Below the pieces are notes generated by a model. It was not told the origin of the DNA, ran no database searches, and was given only the letters and a program-made list of their open reading frames with translations. DNA of 21,926 nucleotides from IMG/VR virus record IMGVR_UViG_2585427776_000012, one strand, 5' to 3'. Positions within the stretch are counted from its first letter, which is position 1, and the number at the start of each line of letters is the position of its first letter. Positions 1,419-21,926 of this stretch are shown piece by piece. The translations under genes and the position numbers were made by a program. Source of the stretch: a virus (taxonomy: Duplodnaviria; Heunggongvirae; Uroviricota; Caudoviricetes).

Positions 1419-3911
1419 TTAAAAATCAGCCTGACTCGGGATCAGTTTTTGCCAGATAACTGAAACGTATTTTGCCTGGTAACGGGCGTCATCAAGTGCA
1501 TTATGGCGCTCACCTTCGAATGGAATAGCCGTTCTGGCATCGAAGTCTATGGCTTTCCCCAGCTCAACGATTGTGCGTACATCGCGATCGTTGTAGTAAC
1601 GCCATGGGCAGGGGATCCCCTGCCGTTCGTATGAACGGCGCAAAATCGTGTTGTCGAAGTTGGCTCCATTTCCCCAAACCTGAACAAAAAATTCACCGGA
1701 GTTTTCGTCGATAAATTCTCGCAATTGTAACAGTGCATCATCTAACGGGATTTCATCGGTCATAATGGCAGATTGCGCTTCGCGTGATTGCTTAAGCCAC
1801 CATTTAATGGTGTCCCGATCAATGACTCCGCCAGCAGTTTCCAGATCGATAGTCTTACTAAATTCCGGTCCCATATCTCCGGTTTGCGGATCGAAAAATA
1901 TTGCACCTATTGAGATAATCGGGGCATCAGGATTTTTTCCCATGGTTTTAAGGTCGATCATTAGATGGTCACACGTCCTGCTGGTGGATGTGATAAGGTG
2001 ATGACCGTTCACCGTAATTAAGGGATCTGCCGTCTCGCCAGTTTCACTATCGCTGGCGTGATCCTGAGCGCTGCCAGCATTCTCCTTGTGTGGATGTTCA
2101 GCGCCTTCCATTTCCTTTGGATCATTTTCCTGAACTTCAACCTGATTCTCTTCATCGAATGTTTCCTGGTATGTTGCATCACCCATCACCGCGCCACAAT
2201 CAGGGCAGTTGCCGCCGCCGGTCTGACCGCAGGCGGTGCAGACTTTTTCCACTTCCTGTTGCGCTACTGGTTCAGGCTGTTTCGTTTCTGGCTCGTTTTG
2301 TAACGCATTTGGACTGTTTTGTTCCGCTTTTTGGTAGTTCCGTTCCGCTTTTTGGTAGTTCCGTTCCGATTCATGCTGGTTCTGGTTCACAGAATCGCGG
2401 GTCTGGAGCCCCTTAACCCATTTCGGATCATTCGGGTCGCTAATCCCTGCAACAAATTCTCCGCGAGAGGCAGCAAGCAACTTATCGGCGTCAGGCTGGC
2501 TGATATTGGCTGCCTGCATAATTTTGTTTACTTCGTCAGCGGTAACTTTTACCGGCTCTGGTTGTGCGGTCGTGTCAGATGCACCAGTATTTTGTTGTGA
2601 ACCTGAGTACGTGCCGTTTTTACGTGCGAAGTATTCCTCTTTTGTGATTTCCGTAGCTCCCAAGGCTAGTGCTTTTTCCAGACCAGAAAGTTTGTTTGCG
2701 CGACCGTATTTTTCGCCATCCTTGTCGGTGAAGAGGAAGTAGAACGGCCCCTCACGCTCTACAGATGGTTCGACTTCCACTTTGCATTCGGTTTTTTCGT
2801 TGCCCGGAATTGCCGTTTCCACTGCATCAGTTTCTGGTACTGGCGACGAGAGAGTATCAGTTGCGCTCTGATTTCTTCCTTCATCTTCAAACACGCCCTT
2901 TGTAGTCAGGTATTCAGTAATGTATTTGTTCAGTGCCACAGGGTCTTTGTGAATGTCGATCGGACGTTCACGGACAAGGCCAAAAATAGTCTGGCGGTCG
3001 TAGCGAAGGGCATCAGGCTGTTTGCGCATTGATGCCGAGATACGCTTCCAGTCTTCGCGGTCGTTGTCGATAACTTCTTTTTTTGCCCAGCGATGGATGC
3101 TGCCGTCAATGTTTCCGGCATCCACATCACCAGGCCAGAGAGCGTAGGCCAGTTCGTCATCCAGTGTTTTCCATGTCTGCTTGTATTCGCGATGAATGGC
3201 AGCAATGACCGGGCTGATTTTTCCTGTTGAATTTTCAGTGTACTGTTGATTGGCTCTGGCGCGGGCGAGATCAACAACAGACGTGTATTTTCCGGTTTCC
3301 TTGCGTTCACCTTCGCGACGTTTTTTCCAGATGCGCATCTCTGCCTGAATTTCGGGCCATTTAGCACCAGGAATACATTTATGCTTAACCCACCCAATGG
3401 CGTGCAACTTAAGCTCCGGATACATGGCGTTAACTTCTGGCATTTTCATCAACGCTTCAACGATATGTCCGTCGAATGTTGCCATGTCTTCCTGCAACAA
3501 TTCCTGTGCGCTAATAACCATATCAACGGTGATGTTTTCACATGTGTCGAACTTAACCATGACAGCGTTCTGTACTTCAGGGGCCAGCTTGTCAAAAGTG
3601 ACGTTCATCGGATCGGATTCAGTCTCAACCGGGACAAAAGAAGCAGACTCCTCATCCCAGCGGTTTTCCTGCATATATTCAGCATCCCATGAATCGAGGG
3701 CAGGGCGGGGTATGCCAGGTTTATCCTCGCAGACAATAAATTTATAAGCGCAGTCCTGAGCAGCCGGATAATGTTCCAGGAATTGCCAGTGAAATTTTGC
3801 TCGAGCACGGCGTTCGTCGCCAGCTTCAATGGCTGTAGCTACAGCCACAGCGCTATCTTCTTTTATGGCCTGTTCGTCAGGAATAGCAGCGCAAATAAAG
3901 ACTTTACTCAT
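1419..3911 (-). CDS. Putative phage exonuclease, 830 aa, with C-terminal DEDD-type 3'-5' exonuclease-like domain and internal Cys4 zinc-ribbon
   Basis: Long ORF with RBS GAGGT 8 nt before the ATG. C-terminal motifs NGANFDNTIL and HNALDDARYQAKY resemble DnaQ/RNase T-like exonuclease motifs. CTACGQTGGGNCPDCG is zinc-ribbon-like. Sits in the recE/exo position of the early-left operon. Confidence 0.7.
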   Translation of the reverse strand: MSKVFICAAIPDEQAIKEDSAVAVATAIEAGDERRARAKFHWQFLEHYPAAQDCAYKFIVCEDKPGIPRPALDSWDAEYMQENRWDEESASFVPVETESDPMNVTFDKLAPEVQNAVMVKFDTCENITVDMVISAQELLQEDMATFDGHIVEALMKMPEVNAMYPELKLHAIGWVKHKCIPGAKWPEIQAEMRIWKKRREGERKETGKYTSVVDLARARANQQYTENSTGKISPVIAAIHREYKQTWKTLDDELAYALWPGDVDAGNIDGSIHRWAKKEVIDNDREDWKRISASMRKQPDALRYDRQTIFGLVRERPIDIHKDPVALNKYITEYLTTKGVFEDEGRNQSATDTLSSPVPETDAVETAIPGNEKTECKVEVEPSVEREGPFYFLFTDKDGEKYGRANKLSGLEKALALGATEITKEEYFARKNGTYSGSQQNTGASDTTAQPEPVKVTADEVNKIMQAANISQPDADKLLAASRGEFVAGISDPNDPKWVKGLQTRDSVNQNQHESERNYQKAERNYQKAEQNSPNALQNEPETKQPEPVAQQEVEKVCTACGQTGGGNCPDCGAVMGDATYQETFDEENQVEVQENDPKEMEGAEHPHKENAGSAQDHASDSETGETADPLITVNGHHLITSTSRTCDHLMIDLKTMGKNPDAPIISIGAIFFDPQTGDMGPEFSKTIDLETAGGVIDRDTIKWWLKQSREAQSAIMTDEIPLDDALLQLREFIDENSGEFFVQVWGNGANFDNTILRRSYERQGIPCPWRYYNDRDVRTIVELGKAIDFDARTAIPFEGERHNALDDARYQAKYVSVIWQKLIPSQADF
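2321..2368. repeat. Tandem 21-bp direct repeat (2.3 copies) inside the exonuclease gene
   Basis: GTTCCGCTTTTTGGTAGTTCC repeated twice plus a partial third unit; encodes the duplicated peptide NYQKAER in the low-complexity linker. Confidence 0.8.
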
Positions 3912-15122: not shown

Positions 15123-16172
15123 ATGCTTAATACTGTAAAAATATCCAGTTGTGAGTTAATCAACGCCGACTGCCTGGAATTTATCCGGTCGTTACCCGAA
15201 AATTCTGTTGACCTGATAGTCACGGACCCGCCGTACTTTAAAGTGAAGCCTGAGGGCTGGGATAACCAGTGGAAGGGCGACGATGATTACCTGAAGTGGC
15301 TGGACCAGTGTCTGGCGCAGTTCTGGCGGGTGCTGAAACCTGCCGGAAGTCTTTACCTGTTCTGTGGTCATCGCCGGGCATCTGATATCGAAATCATGAT
15401 GCGTGAACGCTTCAGTGTGCTGAACCATATTATCTGGGCGAAGCCGTCCGGACGCTGGAACGGATGCAACAAGGAAAGCCTGCGGGCGTATTCCCCCGCC
15501 ACAGAGCGCATTCTGTTCGCGGAACATTATCAGGGGCCGTATCGTCCGAAAGATGCCGGGTATGCGGCGAAGGGCAGTGCACTGAAACAGCATGTGATGG
15601 CCCCGCTGATTTCTTACTTTCGTGATGCGCGCGCGGCCCTGGGGATAACGGCAAAACAGATTGCAGATGCCACAGGAAAGAAAAACATGGTGTCGCACTG
15701 GTTCAGTGCCAGTCAGTGGCAGCTACCGAACGAAAGCGATTATCTGAAATTACAGTCGCTGTTTGCCCGGGTGGCAGAAGAGAAACATCAGCGCGGTGAA
15801 CTGGAAAAGCCCCACCACCAGCTGGTGGATACGTATACGTCACTGAACCGGCAGTATGTGGAGCTGCAGAGTGAATATAAGCATCTGCGGCGGTATTTTG
15901 GTGTGACGGCGCAGGTGCCGTACACGGATGTGTGGACACATAAACCGGTGCAGTTCTATCCCGGGAAACATCCGTGCGAAAAACCGGCAGAAATGCTGCA
16001 GCAGATAATCAGCGCAAGCAGTCGTCCGGGTGACCTGGTTGCAGATTTTTTTATGGGCTCAGGTTCAACGGTAAAAGCGGCACTGGCGCTCGGGCGTCGT
16101 GCGATTGGCGTTGAACTGGAGACCGGACGTTTTGAGCAGACAGTCAGGGAAGTTCAGGATTTAATCGTTTGA
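15123..16172 (+). CDS. Orphan DNA methyltransferase (beta-class amino-methyltransferase, N6-adenine or N4-cytosine)
   Basis: Motif IV VTDPPY near the N-terminus and motif I DFFMGSGST near the C-terminus (beta-class order). No adjacent restriction endonuclease. Same position as the methyltransferase of Stx-type phages. Confidence 0.85.
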   Translation: MLNTVKISSCELINADCLEFIRSLPENSVDLIVTDPPYFKVKPEGWDNQWKGDDDYLKWLDQCLAQFWRVLKPAGSLYLFCGHRRASDIEIMMRERFSVLNHIIWAKPSGRWNGCNKESLRAYSPATERILFAEHYQGPYRPKDAGYAAKGSALKQHVMAPLISYFRDARAALGITAKQIADATGKKNMVSHWFSASQWQLPNESDYLKLQSLFARVAEEKHQRGELEKPHHQLVDTYTSLNRQYVELQSEYKHLRRYFGVTAQVPYTDVWTHKPVQFYPGKHPCEKPAEMLQQIISASSRPGDLVADFFMGSGSTVKAALALGRRAIGVELETGRFEQTVREVQDLIV

Positions 16173-16221: not shown

Positions 16222-16297
16222 GGCCCTTTAGCTCAGTGGTGAGAGCGAGCGACTCATAATCGCCAGGTCGCTGGTTCAAATCCAGCAAGGGCCACCA
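16222..16297 (+). tRNA. tRNA-Ile2 (anticodon CAT, lysidine type; a Met reading is not excluded by sequence alone)
   Basis: Cloverleaf by eye: acceptor GGCCCTT/AAGGGCC, D-arm GCTC...GAGC, anticodon loop CTCATAA, T-loop TTCAAAT, encoded CCA. Closely resembles E. coli ileX as recalled. Confidence 0.8.
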
Positions 16298-16304
16298 TCA
16301 CATA

Positions 16305-16381
16305 CCGCCATTAGCTCATCAGGAAAGAGCGCCAGCCTTCGAAGCTGGTTGCGCGGAGTTCGGGTCCCCGAAGGCGGTCCA
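16305..16381 (+). tRNA. tRNA-Arg (anticodon read as TCG; one mismatch each in acceptor and T stems)
   Basis: Anticodon stem CCAGC/GCTGG with loop CTTCGAA, D-arm GCTC/GAGC, encoded CCA. Anticodon read by eye and should be confirmed with a tRNA scanner. Confidence 0.6.
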
Positions 16382-16394
16382 TTATCTGTATCCT

Positions 16395-16471
16395 GCGTTG
16401 TTAGCTCAGCCGGACAGAGCAATTGCCTTCTAAGCAATCGGTCACTGGTTCGAATCCAGTACAACGCGCCA
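16395..16471 (+). tRNA. tRNA-Arg (anticodon TCT, reads the rare AGA codon)
   Basis: Acceptor GCGTTGT/ACAACGC, anticodon stem ATTGC/GCAAT with loop CTTCTAA, T-loop TTCGAAT, discriminator G, encoded CCA. Confidence 0.8.
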
Positions 16472-16982: not shown

Positions 16983-17217
16983 TGCTCACAATTCAGTAAG
17001 TTGACAGTTGCCTGTCAGACTGGGCATTTGTTAAAAAAATTTCGCATGGTGAATCCCCCTGAGCGGAGGGGCGACTGGTGACGGTATAATCTCTGATTAT
17101 CAAAACGAGAATGACGCGGGTTTAGTGGCACCGGGCTGAACTCACCGGGAGGCACCCGGCACCATGTGCATGATGATACAGATACGCGGCTTTAGCCCCT
17201 CTCCGGAGGGGCTTTCT
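16983..17217 (+). repeat. Structured non-coding element, copy 2 (paralog of 16514-16732)
   Basis: Same conserved blocks as copy 1, TATAAT at 17085-17090, terminator AGCCCCTCTCCGGAGGGGCTTT at 17193-17214. A further GCCCGCG...CGCGGGC hairpin follows at 17232-17257. Confidence 0.55.
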
Positions 17218-17446
17218 TATGGACAAAAAAAGCCCGCGCTGGGAGACGCGGGCGGCAAGGAATAAACAATAAAACGTGAAGTAATATTTCAGCTGGCGAA
17301 TAATACCCCATAGTAATCACTCTGCGCAACTGCGCGGTCTTTTTCGAATTGCGGGCTGTAGTCTCCCTTCTGCCATTGTCCTGTAACTTCCGGACTTCAG
17401 CCTGCTCCTTATCTGACTCACAACATTATCCCGCCCGGGAGGATTC

Positions 17447-17707
17447 ATGGCATTTAAACACTATGACGTGGTCAGGGCGGCATCGCCGTCAGACCTTGCG
17501 AAACGACTGACACAAAAACTGAAGGAGGGCTGGCAGCCGTTTGGTAGTCCGGTGGCCATAACCCCTTATACCCTGATGCAGGCGATTGCAGCAGAAGGTG
17601 ATGTGGTCGTCAGTGGTGCAACTGAGCCGGAGTGGTACTACGTCATCGTACTGGCCGGGCATCCGGTGTGGAGGTGGACAAGGTTGCAGAGGCTTTCGGA
17701 AAACTGA
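17447..17707 (+). CDS. Hypothetical protein (86 aa), probably 3'-truncated at a deletion junction
   Basis: Strong RBS GGGAGGA before the ATG at 17447. The ORF runs into the out-of-frame start of H-homologous sequence, so its C-terminus is probably not native. Confidence 0.5.
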   Translation: MAFKHYDVVRAASPSDLAKRLTQKLKEGWQPFGSPVAITPYTLMQAIAAEGDVVVSGATEPEWYYVIVLAGHPVWRWTRLQRLSEN

Positions 17708-19578
17708 CCACTGACCCGACGTCGGGGCTGATTGCGATGGCGAAGCAGTTCCATAACGTGACGGCGGAGCAGATTGCGTATGTTGCTCAGTTGCAGCGTT
17801 CCGGCGATGAAACCGGGGCATTGCAGGCGGCGAACGAGGCCGCAACGAAAGGGTTTGATGACCAGACCCGCCGCCTGAAAGAGAACATGGGCACGCTGGA
17901 GACCTGGGCAGACAGGACAGCGCGGGCATTCAAATCCATGTGGGATGCGGTGCTGGATATTGGTCGTCCTGATACCGCGCAGGAGATGCTGATTAAGGCA
18001 GAGGCTGCGTTTAAGAAAGCAGACGACATCTGGAATCTGCGCAAGGATGATTATTTTGTTAACGATGAAGCGCGGGCGCGTTACTGGGATGATCGTGAAA
18101 AGGCCCGTCTTGCGCTTGAAGCCGCCCGAAAGAAGGCTGAGCAGCAGACTCAACAGGACAAAAATGCGCAGCAGCAGAGCGATACCGAAGCGTCACGGCT
18201 GAAATATACCGAAGAGGCGCAGAAGGCTTACGAACGGCTGCAGACGCCGCTGGAGAAATATACCGCCCGTCAGGAAGAACTGAACAAGGCACTGAAAGAC
18301 GGGAAAATCCTGCAGGCGGATTACAACACGCTGATGGCGGCGGCGAAAAAGGATTATGAAGCGACGCTGAAAAAGCCGAAACAGTCCGGCGTGAAGGTGT
18401 CTGCGGGCGATCGTCAGGAAGACAGTGCTCATGCTGCCCTGCTGACGCTTCAGGCAGAACTCCGGACGCTGGAGAAGCATGCCGGAGCGAATGAGAAAAT
18501 CAGCCAGCAGCGCCGGGATTTGTGGAAGGCGGAGAGTCAGTTCGCGGTACTGGAGGAGGCGGCGCAACGTCGCCAGCTGTCTGCACAGGAGAAATCCCTG
18601 CTGGCGCATAAAGATGAGACGCTGGAGTACAAACGCCAGCTGGCTGCACTTGGCGACAAGGTTACGTATCAGGAGCGCCTGAACGCGCTGGCGCAGCAGG
18701 CGGATAAATTCGCACAGCAGCAACGGGCAAAACGGGCCGCCATTGATGCGAAAAGCCGGGGGCTGACTGACCGGCAGGCAGAACGGGAAGCCACGGAACA
18801 GCGCCTGAAGGAACAGTATGGCGATAATCCGCTGGCGCTGAATAACGTCATGTCAGAGCAGAAAAAGACCTGGGCGGCTGAAGACCTGCTTCGCGGGAAC
18901 TGGATGGCAGGCCTCAGGTCCGGCTGGAGTGAGTGGGAAGAGAGTGCCACGGACAGTATGTCGCAGGTTAAAAACGCGGCCACGCAGACCTTTGATGGTA
19001 TTGCACAGAATATGGCGGCGATGCTGACCGGCAGTGAACAGAACTGGCGCAGCTTCACCCGTTCCGTGCTGTCCATGATGACAGAAATTCTGCTTAAGCA
19101 GGCAATGGTGGGGATTGTCGGGAGTATCGGCAGCGCTATTGGCGGGGCTGTTGGTGGCGGCGCATCCGCGTCAGGCGGTACAGCCATTCAGGCCGCTGCG
19201 GCGAAATTCCATTTTGCAACCGGAGGATTTACGGGAACCGGCGGCAAATATGAGCCAGCGGGGATTGTCCACCGCGGGGAGTTTGTCTTCACGAAGGAGG
19301 CAACCAGCCGGATTGGTGTCGGGAACCTGTACCGCCTGATGCGGGGCTATGCGGAAGGGGGGTATGTGGGTGCTGCCGGAAGTCCGGCGCAGATGCGGCG
19401 GGCCGAAGGCATTAATTTTAATCAGAACAATCACGTGGTGATTCAGAACGACGGTATCAACGGACAGGCCGGGCCGCAGCTGATGAAAGCGGTGTATGAG
19501 ATGGCCCGTAAAGGTGCGCAGGATGAGCTCCGGCTGCAGTTGCGTGATGGCGGTCTGTTATCGGGGAGCGGGCGATGA
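17660..19578 (+). pseudogene. Tail tape-measure protein H, 5'-truncated fragment (C-terminal ~640 codons)
   Basis: No start codon or RBS at the 5' end of the homology. C-terminal region FHFATGGFTGTGGKYEPAGIVHRGEFVFTKEATSRIGVGNLYRLMRGYAEGGYVG...NNHVVIQNDG...LRDGGLLSGSGR is lambda-H-like as recalled. Confidence 0.8.
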
Positions 19579-19904
19579 AAACATTTCGCTGGAAAGTGAA
19601 GCCGGATATGGAGGTGAACTCGCAGCCATCGGTGCGTGAAGTGCGTTTTGGTGACGGGTACTCACAGCGTATGGCGGCAGGGCTGAATGCTGACCTGAAA
19701 ACATACAGGGTGACGCTTTCCGTGACCCGGGAGGAGGCCCGGCATCTGGAAGCGTTCCTGGCAGAGCACGGTGGCTGGAAGGCATTTTTGTGGAAGCCAC
19801 CCTATGCATACCGGCAGATAAAGGTGACCTGTGCCGGGTGGTCTGCGCGGGTCGGGATGTTGCGCGTTGAGTTCAGCGCGGAGTTTAAGCAGGTGGTGAA
19901 CTGA
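19575..19904 (+). CDS. Minor tail protein M
   Basis: 109 aa; MKTFRWKVKP...VRFGDGYSQR...LRVEFSAEFKQVVN is close to lambda gpM as recalled. Start overlaps the H stop. Confidence 0.9.
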   Translation: MKTFRWKVKPDMEVNSQPSVREVRFGDGYSQRMAAGLNADLKTYRVTLSVTREEARHLEAFLAEHGGWKAFLWKPPYAYRQIKVTCAGWSARVGMLRVEFSAEFKQVVN

Positions 19905-20641
19905 TGCAGGATATTCACGAAGAAAGTCTGAACGAGTCGGTTAAGTCAGAGCAGTCACCGCGGGTGGTACTCTGGGAAATCGACCTGACGGTGCAGGGCG
20001 GTGAGCGGTATTTTTTCTGCAATGAGCTGAATGAAAAAGGGGAGCCGGTGACCTGGCAGGGGCGTGAATATCAGGCGTACCCGATTGAGGGGAGTGGCTT
20101 TGAGATGAACGGGAAGGGCAGCAGTGCCAGACCATCGCTGACGGTGTCCAATCTGTTTGGTCTGGTCACCGGGATGGCGGAAGACCTGCAGAGTCTGGTG
20201 GGGGCCACGGTGGTCCGCCGCCGGGTGTATGCCCGTTTTCTGGATGCGGTGAATTTCGTTGCGGGCAATCCGGAGGCGGACCCGGAGCAGGAGCTGAGTG
20301 ACCGCTGGGTGGTGGAGCAGATGTCGCAGCTGACAGCCATGACGGCCTCGTTTGTGCTGGCCACACCGACCGAGACGGACGGGGCGCTGTTTCCCGGTCG
20401 TATCATGCTGGCGAACACCTGTATGTGGACCTACCGCTCTGATGAGTGTGGTTACACGGGCGGGGCTGTGGCGGATGAGTTCGATAAACCCACCACGGAT
20501 ATCCGTAAGGACAGATGCAGCAAGTGCATGCGCGGGTGTGAACTGCGCAGGAATGTCGGCAATTACGTCCGTTACCGGAAAATGTTACCTGGTTATCGCC
20601 GGAAGGGGAGTTTCAGAAGTGGAACGGCACAGCCTGGGTGA
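19904..20641 (+). CDS. Minor tail protein L (C-terminal ~25 aa replaced by out-of-frame tfa-derived sequence)
   Basis: 245 aa; strong similarity to lambda gpL through ...[16 protein letters not shown], after which the sequence diverges (recombination junction about 20565-20578). Confidence 0.8.
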
Positions 20642-20880
20642 AGGATACGGAAGCAGAAAAACTGTTCCGGATCCGGGAGGCGGAAGAAACAAAAAACAAC
20701 CTGATGCAGGTAGCCAGTGAGCATATTGCGCCGCTTCAGGATGCTGCAGATCTGGAAATTGCAACGGAGGAAGAAACCTCATTGCTGGAAGCCTGGAAAA
20801 AGTATCGGGTGTTGCTGAACCGTGTTGATACATCAACTGCACCTGATATTGAGTGGCCTACGAACCCTGTCAGGGAGTAA
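20578..20880 (+). pseudogene. Tail fibre assembly protein (Tfa) 3' fragment fused out of frame to the end of L
   Basis: Frame-1 translation [94 protein letters not shown] is the typical Tfa C-terminal region. No N-terminus or own start; the K, I, J and stf genes are absent. Confidence 0.75.
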
Positions 20881-20893
20881 TCATTGGGATTAT

Positions 20894-20945
20894 GCCGCAG
20901 CACGTCTTAAGCAAGAACGTGCTGCGGTTGGATGCTATTTTTTCC
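20894..20945. terminator. Bidirectional terminator hairpin between the convergent tfa fragment and methyltransferase gene
   Basis: 10-bp inverted repeat CCGCAGCACG ... CGTGCTGCGG followed by a T-run (GCTATTTTTTCC). Confidence 0.6.
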
Positions 20946-21600
20946 CTGAAGCGGAAAACATTACTACAGTACCTTGAACCTTGGTTTTAACATTCTCGAA
21001 ATGCTCTGAGAGTATATGTGTTAAGCCTTCTTCGGAATCTTTTGTGTTTGAAAAGATGCCTTTCTGATTGTAAATGCGCATCAGTTTTTGACCGAAGCTA
21101 TTGTGCACAACTCCATCGCCAAGAATTGTGGCTCCGTATAGAGTTCCATCGTCAGTTAAGGCCTGCGCCGCATTGCGTATTACACAGCTTTTTGTAGATA
21201 TATTTCCAGGCAGGCAGTGAAGAAGGTAAAACATGGAAATGGAATCAAATTGACCATGTAACGCCGCGGGATAAGGTTCAAAAACATCATGGCTAATTTT
21301 ATGTTTAATTTTTGATTCCCCAGCCCTTGTAGATGCCGCGTTCAGGCTAGCTTCGTTCAAATCCATTAAAGATATCAGACTACTCTCAGGTACGTGAGTA
21401 AGGTAAAACCCAGTTCCAACACCAATATCCAGATGGTTGTTACCTACATGTTCCAGAAAGTGTGGAAGAAGGTGTTCCTTTGTAGGACATCCCCATGCAA
21501 GCCGATTTGATACTCCCAAAACCCACCAGTCATAAAGCTTTAGGGTAAGTGGTGTGTAAATTTTAGCCCCATCATCTGTGTTTTTTTTCATTGATTTCAC
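20935..21600 (-). CDS. AT-rich cargo gene: class I (Rossmann-fold) SAM-dependent methyltransferase, substrate unknown
   Basis: 221 aa. Motif I HLDIGVGTGFYL (GxGxG-type SAM-binding loop) and acidic beta-2 end (LMDLNEASL). Low GC, opposite strand, flanked by tfa-derived direct repeats. Confidence 0.7.
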   Translation of the reverse strand: MKSMKKNTDDGAKIYTPLTLKLYDWWVLGVSNRLAWGCPTKEHLLPHFLEHVGNNHLDIGVGTGFYLTHVPESSLISLMDLNEASLNAASTRAGESKIKHKISHDVFEPYPAALHGQFDSISMFYLLHCLPGNISTKSCVIRNAAQALTDDGTLYGATILGDGVVHNSFGQKLMRIYNQKGIFSNTKDSEEGLTHILSEHFENVKTKVQGTVVMFSASGKK

Positions 21601-21659
21601 TATGTTATAGTTTTATTTGTGAATTAAATCAATTATGGCGATGAATTACAAGGGGTTAA

Positions 21660-21926
21660 ATGCTGCCGCAGCATAGCGATATTGAAATAGCCTGGTATGC
21701 TTCGATACAGCAGGAGCCGAATGACTGGAAGACCGTCACCACACAGTTCCACATCCAGGAATTCAGTGAGTATATTGCGCCACTGCAGGATGCTGTAGAT
21801 CTGGAAATCGCAACGGCGGAAGAAAGATCGTTGCTGGAGGCATGGAATAAATATCGGGTATTGTTGAATCGTGTTGATACATCAACTGCACCTGATATTG
21901 AGTGGCCGACTTCACCTGCAGAGTAA
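21660..21926 (+). CDS. Tail fibre assembly protein C-terminal-domain ORF (88 aa; possibly a remnant)
   Basis: AAGGGG RBS before the ATG at 21660. C-terminal 50 aa nearly identical to the tfa fragment at 20730-20880 ([44 protein letters not shown]). Confidence 0.55.

Follow-up and report, generated by a model that had tools for sequence, protein, structure and literature searches.

The ybcY methyltransferase gene between two tfa 3' fragments at the right end of a deleted lambdoid prophage

The window analyzed here is a stretch of 21,926 nucleotides from a virus of the Caudoviricetes (IMG/VR record IMGVR_UViG_2585427776_000012). Near its 3' end, a leftward gene for an S-adenosylmethionine (SAM)-dependent methyltransferase, ybcY, lies between two rightward pieces of the tail-fibre gene tfa. 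The reading that best accounts for this locus, and one that we hold with good confidence, is that ybcY belongs to a widespread moron unit carried in a deleted lambdoid prophage, and that the tfa ends mark a mosaic joint rather than the footprint of an insertion. From left to right, the widespread unit consists of a hairpin, ybcY, a spacer that contains its putative promoter, and the relic of another tfa gene (tfa', or tfaX). In this prophage an extra deletion of about 9 kb has fused tail gene L to the last third of a functional tfa. The arrangement tfaD-ybcY-tfaX is already known, common, and ordinary. Because it is annotated in the reference genome of E. coli and is present in most E. coli strains, it carries little weight as a discovery. 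The locus is instead a clean example of how lambdoid phages exchange tail-fibre and cargo modules in mosaic fashion, with the conserved tfa 3' end as the linker.

The methyltransferase gene is intact and occupies 20935-21600 on the minus strand. The original prediction, made from the letters of the window, had described it as an AT-rich opposite-strand gene with the SAM-binding motif LDIGVGTGFY, and this description holds in every part. The open reading frame (ORF) encodes 221 amino acids from a GTG at 21600, its guanine plus cytosine (GC) content is 0.41-0.43 across the gene, the motif occupies residues 57-66, and the Pfam families Methyltransf_12, Methyltransf_23, Methyltransf_25, and Methyltransf_11 all match above their cut-offs. 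An alignment of homologues prefers an ATG at 21591, which gives 218 amino acids, over the GTG. The protein matches the profile of phrog_2132 from end to end (E 4.1e-157; residues 4-221 against positions 1-218 of 218), a PHROG family labelled 'unknown function'. The gene is 99.4% identical in nucleotides to ybcY of NC_000913, and its setting agrees with that identity: it runs leftward at the right end of a lambdoid prophage, with a tfa end on one side and the tfaX relic on the other.

In E. coli K-12 the corresponding segment of DLP12 shares gene order and orientation with the window, 96.8% nucleotide identity over 20567-21906, and the promoter hexamers in the ybcY/tfaX spacer. Differences are found in the state of the genes. 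K-12 ybcY is annotated as a pseudogene, whereas ybcY in the window is intact; DLP12 keeps a full tfaD, whereas tfa in the window is cut and fused to the truncated L; and the K-12 allele of tfaX has a different 3' end (85% identity, another stop). Among 5,426 complete E. coli genomes, ybcY was found in 3,799, ybcY together with tfa' in 3,425, and ybcY together with the left tfa allele of the window in 1,497. Many E. coli chromosomes are 99.9% identical to 20567-21926. ATCC 25922 has the end of an intact prophage with the order J-lom-stf-tfa-methyltransferase (minus strand)-tfa' (pseudogene)-attR, at potB. The unit is also carried by viable phages (PhiR26_1, PhiR29/30, 2G7b, ev243, and PhiR68_2), and ybcY occurs in inducible phages. 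Identity among carriers is 98.6-100% for ybcY and 85-100% for tfa'; the left tfa is 77-100% identical or is not adjacent.

The borders of the insert are defined by comparison with lambda, which has one tfa. Lambda aligns at 92% to 20567-20929, from tfa through the hairpin, and then diverges into ea47, while homology to tfa' begins at 21753. Therefore the cargo proper is the segment 20930-21752, 823 bp of low-GC DNA (0.37-0.43) that has neither lambda nor tfa homology and holds, on the minus strand, ybcY, its promoter region, and a spacer of ~90 nucleotides (nt). In lambda, the order is stf-tfa-(hairpin)-b region (ea47/ea31/ea59); the tfa 3' end and the hairpin are homologous to those of the window, and, as in the window, leftward-transcribed accessory DNA follows the hairpin, but lambda has no methyltransferase and its accessory genes are unrelated.

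Morons, a term defined for lambdoid phages of the HK97 and HK022 type, are additional genes that lie between conserved phage genes and are transcribed autonomously. The view that the methyltransferase is cargo placed downstream of the tail-fibre genes is borne out by several observations. The gene is absent from lambda, HK629, and HK630, in all of which homology to the window ends at 20929, just past the hairpin, and it is present in PhiR26_1, 2G7b, and ev243; its base composition, low in GC, is unlike that of its flanks; its homologues are found elsewhere; and relatives carry other cargo at the same spot. With phage morons ybcY shares patchy presence, deviant composition, a promoter-like site upstream, a hairpin downstream, and a position in the known cargo hot spot behind the tail-fibre genes. 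These features support its assignment as a putative moron, or accessory cargo, in a moron-rich region downstream of tail-fibre genes.

Signals that could make ybcY independent are present at both of its ends. A sigma-70-like promoter, TTGATT-17-TATAAC, is located at 21604-21632 on the minus strand, directly upstream of the ybcY start; the window contains one exact match to it, and 0 are expected in shuffled sequence. Identical hexamers are listed for K-12 ybcY in a genomic SELEX (systematic evolution of ligands by exponential enrichment) study of RpoD, in which the spacer between ybcY and tfaX also has an H-NS site (PMC3946193). At the other end, between the tfa stop and the methyltransferase stop, folding and conservation define a GC-rich hairpin at 20894-20928, to which no strand is assigned, with a folding free energy of -28.5 kcal/mol (z = -4.6; 0 of 200 shuffles were as stable). 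It is also found after tfa in lambda (locus 3570-3606) and in an intact prophage used for comparison (L002, 40877-40912). The copies differ by a compensatory C-G to A-T change in the stem, and some contain a bulged A. The hairpin remains joined to the methyltransferase 3' end in two relatives in which the upstream DNA differs (L015 and L018, the latter E. coli 21B8). Conservation from lambda to prophages, combined with the compensatory change, suggests selection for an RNA or DNA structure where the late operon ends, and it is likely that the hairpin acts as a transcription stop or an RNA-stabilizing element for both convergent units.

Thus ybcY appears to be a self-contained moron that has a sigma-70 promoter to itself, in an AT-rich spacer of the H-NS type, and ends at the hairpin that also follows lambda tfa; with such ends the prophage would be able to express it without the late operon. 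Some details of the signals weigh against this. The -10 hexamer ends 12 nt before the preferred ATG, so that the ybcY mRNA would be nearly leaderless, and another site that resembles a promoter, though a weaker one, at 21659-21632, offers an alternative for ybcY. The hairpin has no U-tract abutting its stem on either strand, and a terminator scan gave no call. Because of these two features of the hairpin, the strong hairpin that had been noted at 20894-20930 is confirmed as a structure and is a plausible candidate for a bidirectional terminator.

The left tfa piece, at 20567-20880 on the plus strand, is a lambda-type allele of which 103 codons and the stop (TAA at 20878-20880) remain in the tfa frame. 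It is 92% identical to lambda 22244-22608 and codes for no more of Tfa than its conserved C-terminal part, as indicated by a match to Pfam Caudo_TAP at profile positions 56-130 of 131 (E 4e-32). The right piece is part of a chimeric ORF of 88 amino acids of the TfaX type (21660-21926, plus strand), in which ~30 codons of spacer origin precede ~58 from a tfa C-terminal domain. This ORF matches phrog_2341 over its full length (E 2e-60), another PHROG family labelled 'unknown function', and Caudo_TAP for residues 31-87 only (E 6e-25; profile positions 75-131 of 131); in relatives it is annotated as a pseudogene or as tfaX. A functional Tfa has both domains, and neither copy does. The left copy lost its start through the deletion between L and tfa, and the right copy opens in unrelated spacer sequence. 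With the 9-kb deletion, then, both tfa pieces are, judged by their domain content, evidently non-functional C-terminal fragments. RefSeq labels part of the spacer at 21660-21752 a DinI fragment in one strain; translations in all frames have no match to DinI or to any other Pfam family, and we reject this label.

A repeat search returned a single long direct repeat of 158 nt with 87% identity. Its first copy is the conserved tfa 3' end at 20704-20861, and its second is the relic tfa 3' end at 21753-21910, itself a mosaic boundary; both are on the plus strand. The repeat can be traced at lower identity to ~20883 and ~21926; the copies are 158-227 nt long and only 84-88% identical. The earlier description of two nearly identical ~150-bp copies of the tfa 3' end is therefore right as to two direct plus-strand copies, both recognized by Caudo_TAP, but not as to near identity. 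Nor is the left copy a gene; it is only a 3' fragment, joined out of frame to the truncated L.

From these repeats it had been proposed that ybcY was acquired by recombination between two tfa copies, with the ~150-bp direct repeats as the footprint of the event. We regard this as unlikely. The two copies are about as distant from each other as each is from lambda tfa (92% for the left, 87% for the right). The left copy is not constant among relatives: other tfa alleles occur there, and between tfa and ybcY there may be pin-ynaE (in PhiR68_2), a yciGFE-catalase block, or IS3 (in strain 2022S01-140), while in 2G7b and ev243 a different fibre module comes first and no more than the final ~120 nt of tfa remain after it. 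The conserved pair is ybcY-tfa', and in phage Ayreon the spacer runs on into non-tfa DNA. Moreover, homologous recombination between tfa copies alone cannot yield the non-homologous joints at 20929/20930 and 21752/21753. Homology break-points among relatives cluster within the tfa pieces, at 20735, 20760, 20764, 21884, and 21906/7, and the homology of the second copy ends at 21884 or at 21906/7 depending on the phage. A constant ybcY-tfa' pair next to a variable left neighbour argues that the repeats are a mosaic joint, that is, recombination linkers, and not the footprint of an insertion.

A history in two steps would fit the mosaic joint. In the first, ybcY with its spacer would have become joined to the middle of the tfa gene of another phage in a single out-of-register, non-homologous event. 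In the second, the conserved coding sequence for the Tfa C-terminus would have served as a homology linker for the exchange of modules on either side. Such exchange would swap modules of the tail fibre to the left of the linker and modules of the b region to its right, and would move the ybcY cassette among lambdoid phages. PMC9608196, in its summary of North et al. 2019, describes for Tfa a variable N-terminal fibre-binding domain and a conserved C-terminal helical (trimerization) domain, and the linker role of the tfa 3' end would fit this division.

Two of the relatives show further rearrangements at the locus. In E. coli 21B8 (NZ_CP040309, locus 295-2508), the DNA between tfa and the hairpin-ybcY unit is a block of chromosomal type for stress proteins that encodes a general stress protein (yciG), two ferritin-like proteins of the yciE/yciF type, and a manganese catalase. 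In phage Ayreon (MF807953, locus 3269-3617), 20735-20970 is joined directly to 21630-21746 by a deletion of ~660 bp in ybcY, such that the tfa 3' end, the hairpin, and the last 36 nt of ybcY meet the ybcY promoter spacer with a 4-nt overlap. The Ayreon DNA after 21746 is non-tfa, and no tfa' follows. The deletion shows that the methyltransferase is dispensable for lytic growth.

It could also be argued that ybcY is a decaying passenger without current function, kept merely because it lies in cryptic prophage DNA. The growth of Ayreon without ybcY, the pseudogene in K-12, and the defective state of the prophage in the window are in line with this argument, as is a K-12 ybcY mutant that had no phenotype in the one assay reported, of Hha toxicity (PMC2408971). 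A search of the literature on ybcY and tfaX found no functional study, only this mention and the SELEX promoter list. The pattern of substitution nevertheless makes decay improbable. The ratio of nonsynonymous to synonymous substitution rates (dN/dS) is 0.17 at a dS of 0.41 against a Salmonella copy of 88% identity, and 0.08-0.19 within E. coli where dS is measurable. No internal stop occurs in the 10 copies from E. coli and phages that were sampled and align over the full length, 55 columns are invariant among 46 homologues down to 56% identity, and the 90%-identity cluster of the protein (222 amino acids) contains 6,589 sequences. The presence of ybcY in inducible phages speaks against decay as well. 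By these measures ybcY is under purifying selection. Selection thus maintains a prophage gene that is very common, and for which K-12, the usual test strain, is a natural null.

Several lines of evidence place the protein in the class I methyltransferases. Motif I, (D/E)xGxGxG, is present as LDIGVGTG at residues 57-64, the acidic residues of the class are in place, and the model has the seven-stranded beta-sheet fold. Among the 46 homologues, D58, G60, G62, and G64 of motif I, D80, and D119 never vary and D105 almost never does; an N-terminal YDWWV and the motif YLLHCLPG are also conserved. The AF2 model is of high quality (mean predicted local distance difference test score 90.7, predicted template modelling score 0.87). 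The solved structures closest to it are all small-molecule or lipid methyltransferases: juvenile hormone acid methyltransferase (JHAMT; 7EC0), a bacterial phosphatidylethanolamine (PE) N-methyltransferase (8YS9), phosphoethanolamine methyltransferases (among them 4IV0), DhpI (3OU2), Coq5, UbiG, and C-methyltransferase domains of polyketide synthases. Identity to these neighbours is 12-21% and their scores form a flat list, and the likeness to 8YS9 and 4IV0 is at the level of the fold only. A profile search of PDB sequences returned JHAMT (E 7e-6) and UbiG. NCBIfam equivalog models scored 16-18 bits against cut-offs of 175-390, and the PmtA_Leg model gave 15.7 bits against a cut-off of 390, which places YbcY outside the PmtA and phosphoethanolamine methyltransferase families. 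Given the low identity, the lack of a neighbour that stands out, and NCBIfam scores below the cut-offs, YbcY belongs to the small-molecule/lipid methyltransferase fold class but to none of the compared families. We read YbcY as a predicted class I SAM-dependent methyltransferase of the cytoplasm, of the type that acts on small molecules or lipids. The structure and homology comparison that had been suggested for its substrate does point to a class, away from DNA methyltransferases, but names no single substrate.

The genomic contexts of distant homologues bear on how YbcY may act. At 56-87% identity, the homologues are stand-alone genes in chromosomal, plasmid-like, and island settings: between a PMT_2 glycosyltransferase gene and a cytochrome b gene in Salmonella, on Enterobacter and Yersinia chromosomes, on a Salmonella plasmid-like contig with ccdAB, in a PerC/autotransporter island, and in a Citrobacter sodC prophage remnant. 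No partner gene is conserved in the neighbourhoods examined, and no pathway can therefore be inferred for YbcY. The contexts indicate a stand-alone enzyme that would be frequently mobilized. Since the homologues are single genes without a conserved partner, YbcY most likely acts alone, and the best-supported class of substrate for its predicted activity is a metabolite, a xenobiotic, or a lipid head-group. It is tempting to go further and regard YbcY as an unrecognized lysogenic-conversion enzyme of ~70% of E. coli, which would alter a host metabolite, a xenobiotic, or a membrane lipid head-group, with the unit spreading as a recombination-mobilized cassette through homology arms in the tfa C-terminus. 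That PE and phosphoethanolamine N-methyltransferases are among the fold neighbours is of interest here, and we offer this broader view tentatively.

A nucleic-acid methyltransferase, which would protect phage DNA from restriction or mark host DNA or RNA, is a very improbable reading of the same protein. There is no match to Pfam N6_N4_Mtase, DNA_methylase, or MethyltransfD12 at E <= 0.01, the translation contains neither a (D/N/S)PP(Y/F/W) nor a PCQ motif, and small-molecule and lipid enzymes lead the lists of structural and profile neighbours. The homologues stand alone in chromosomes without a restriction partner, a search for defence systems with YbcY gave no match, and a separate gene of the prophage (15123-16172) already carries the annotation of a site-specific DNA methyltransferase. 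Even harder to credit is that tfa-ybcY-tfa' is the remnant of an invertible tail-fibre switching segment of the Gin/Pin/Cin type with alternative tfa genes, for, although a duplicate tfa is typical of such segments and PhiR68_2 has a pin recombinase gene between tfa and ybcY, the tfa copies are direct and both on the plus strand, no inverted repeat brackets the region, no recombinase ORF is found in 17000-21926 and no invertase in the window, no alternative stf C-terminus lies beside tfa', and most carriers have no pin. Insertion of a transposon or insertion sequence with target-site duplication was rejected, as there is no transposase ORF and there are no terminal inverted repeats, and repeats of this length and divergence do not look like such a duplication.

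The surroundings of the ybcY unit show how far the prophage has been reduced. The 3' end of the window is the right end, the counterpart of the lambda b region, of a heavily deleted Rac/lambda-like prophage, and GC content, which is 0.55-0.67 in the tail genes, is only 0.37-0.43 from 20900 to 21700. A lambda-type tail gene cluster precedes the unit, with a fragment of the tape-measure gene (17632-19578), gene M (19575-19904), and a truncated gene for minor tail protein L (19904-20566, plus strand; 221 codons). The truncated L matches Pfam Phage_tail_L (E 3e-88; residues 31-221 against profile positions 3-194 of 206). It is continued by tfa sequence in the wrong frame up to a stop at 20641, which makes a chimeric ORF of 245 amino acids at 19904-20641. 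In a three-way comparison with the intact prophage L002, identity of L to its parental gene stops at ~20564. The illegitimate deletion junction is thereby placed at 20564-20568, with little or no microhomology. Relative to L002, 9,067 bp are missing, and with them went K, I, J, lom, stf, and the 5' portion of tfa. Searches of the 5,426 complete E. coli genomes and of the GTDB genomes that represent species did not find this junction, and the deletion is therefore private to the source strain. None of the complete E. coli genomes covers at least 80% of the window.

A second large deletion, at ~17664/17665, has joined DNA 3' of a tRNA cluster to the middle of the tape-measure gene. As a result, the lysis, terminase, and head genes and most tail genes are gone, and the prophage is cryptic. 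The cluster consists of three phage-borne tRNA genes at 16222-16471, with a CAT anticodon (Met according to ARAGORN, Ile according to RefSeq), Arg-TCG, and Arg-TCT. They lie just 3' of the gene annotated as a site-specific DNA methyltransferase, as in lambdoid phages of the Stx type.

On the other side, the stop codon of the second tfa copy ends at the last base of the window, so DNA farther downstream is visible only in relatives. In the viable phages 2G7b, PhiR26_1, and ev243, two leftward genes, one for an alpha/beta hydrolase of 465-495 amino acids and the other ompT, stand between ybcY-tfa' and int. In K-12 and PhiR68_2 that position is taken by appY-ompT; these are alternative versions of one cargo-rich arm.

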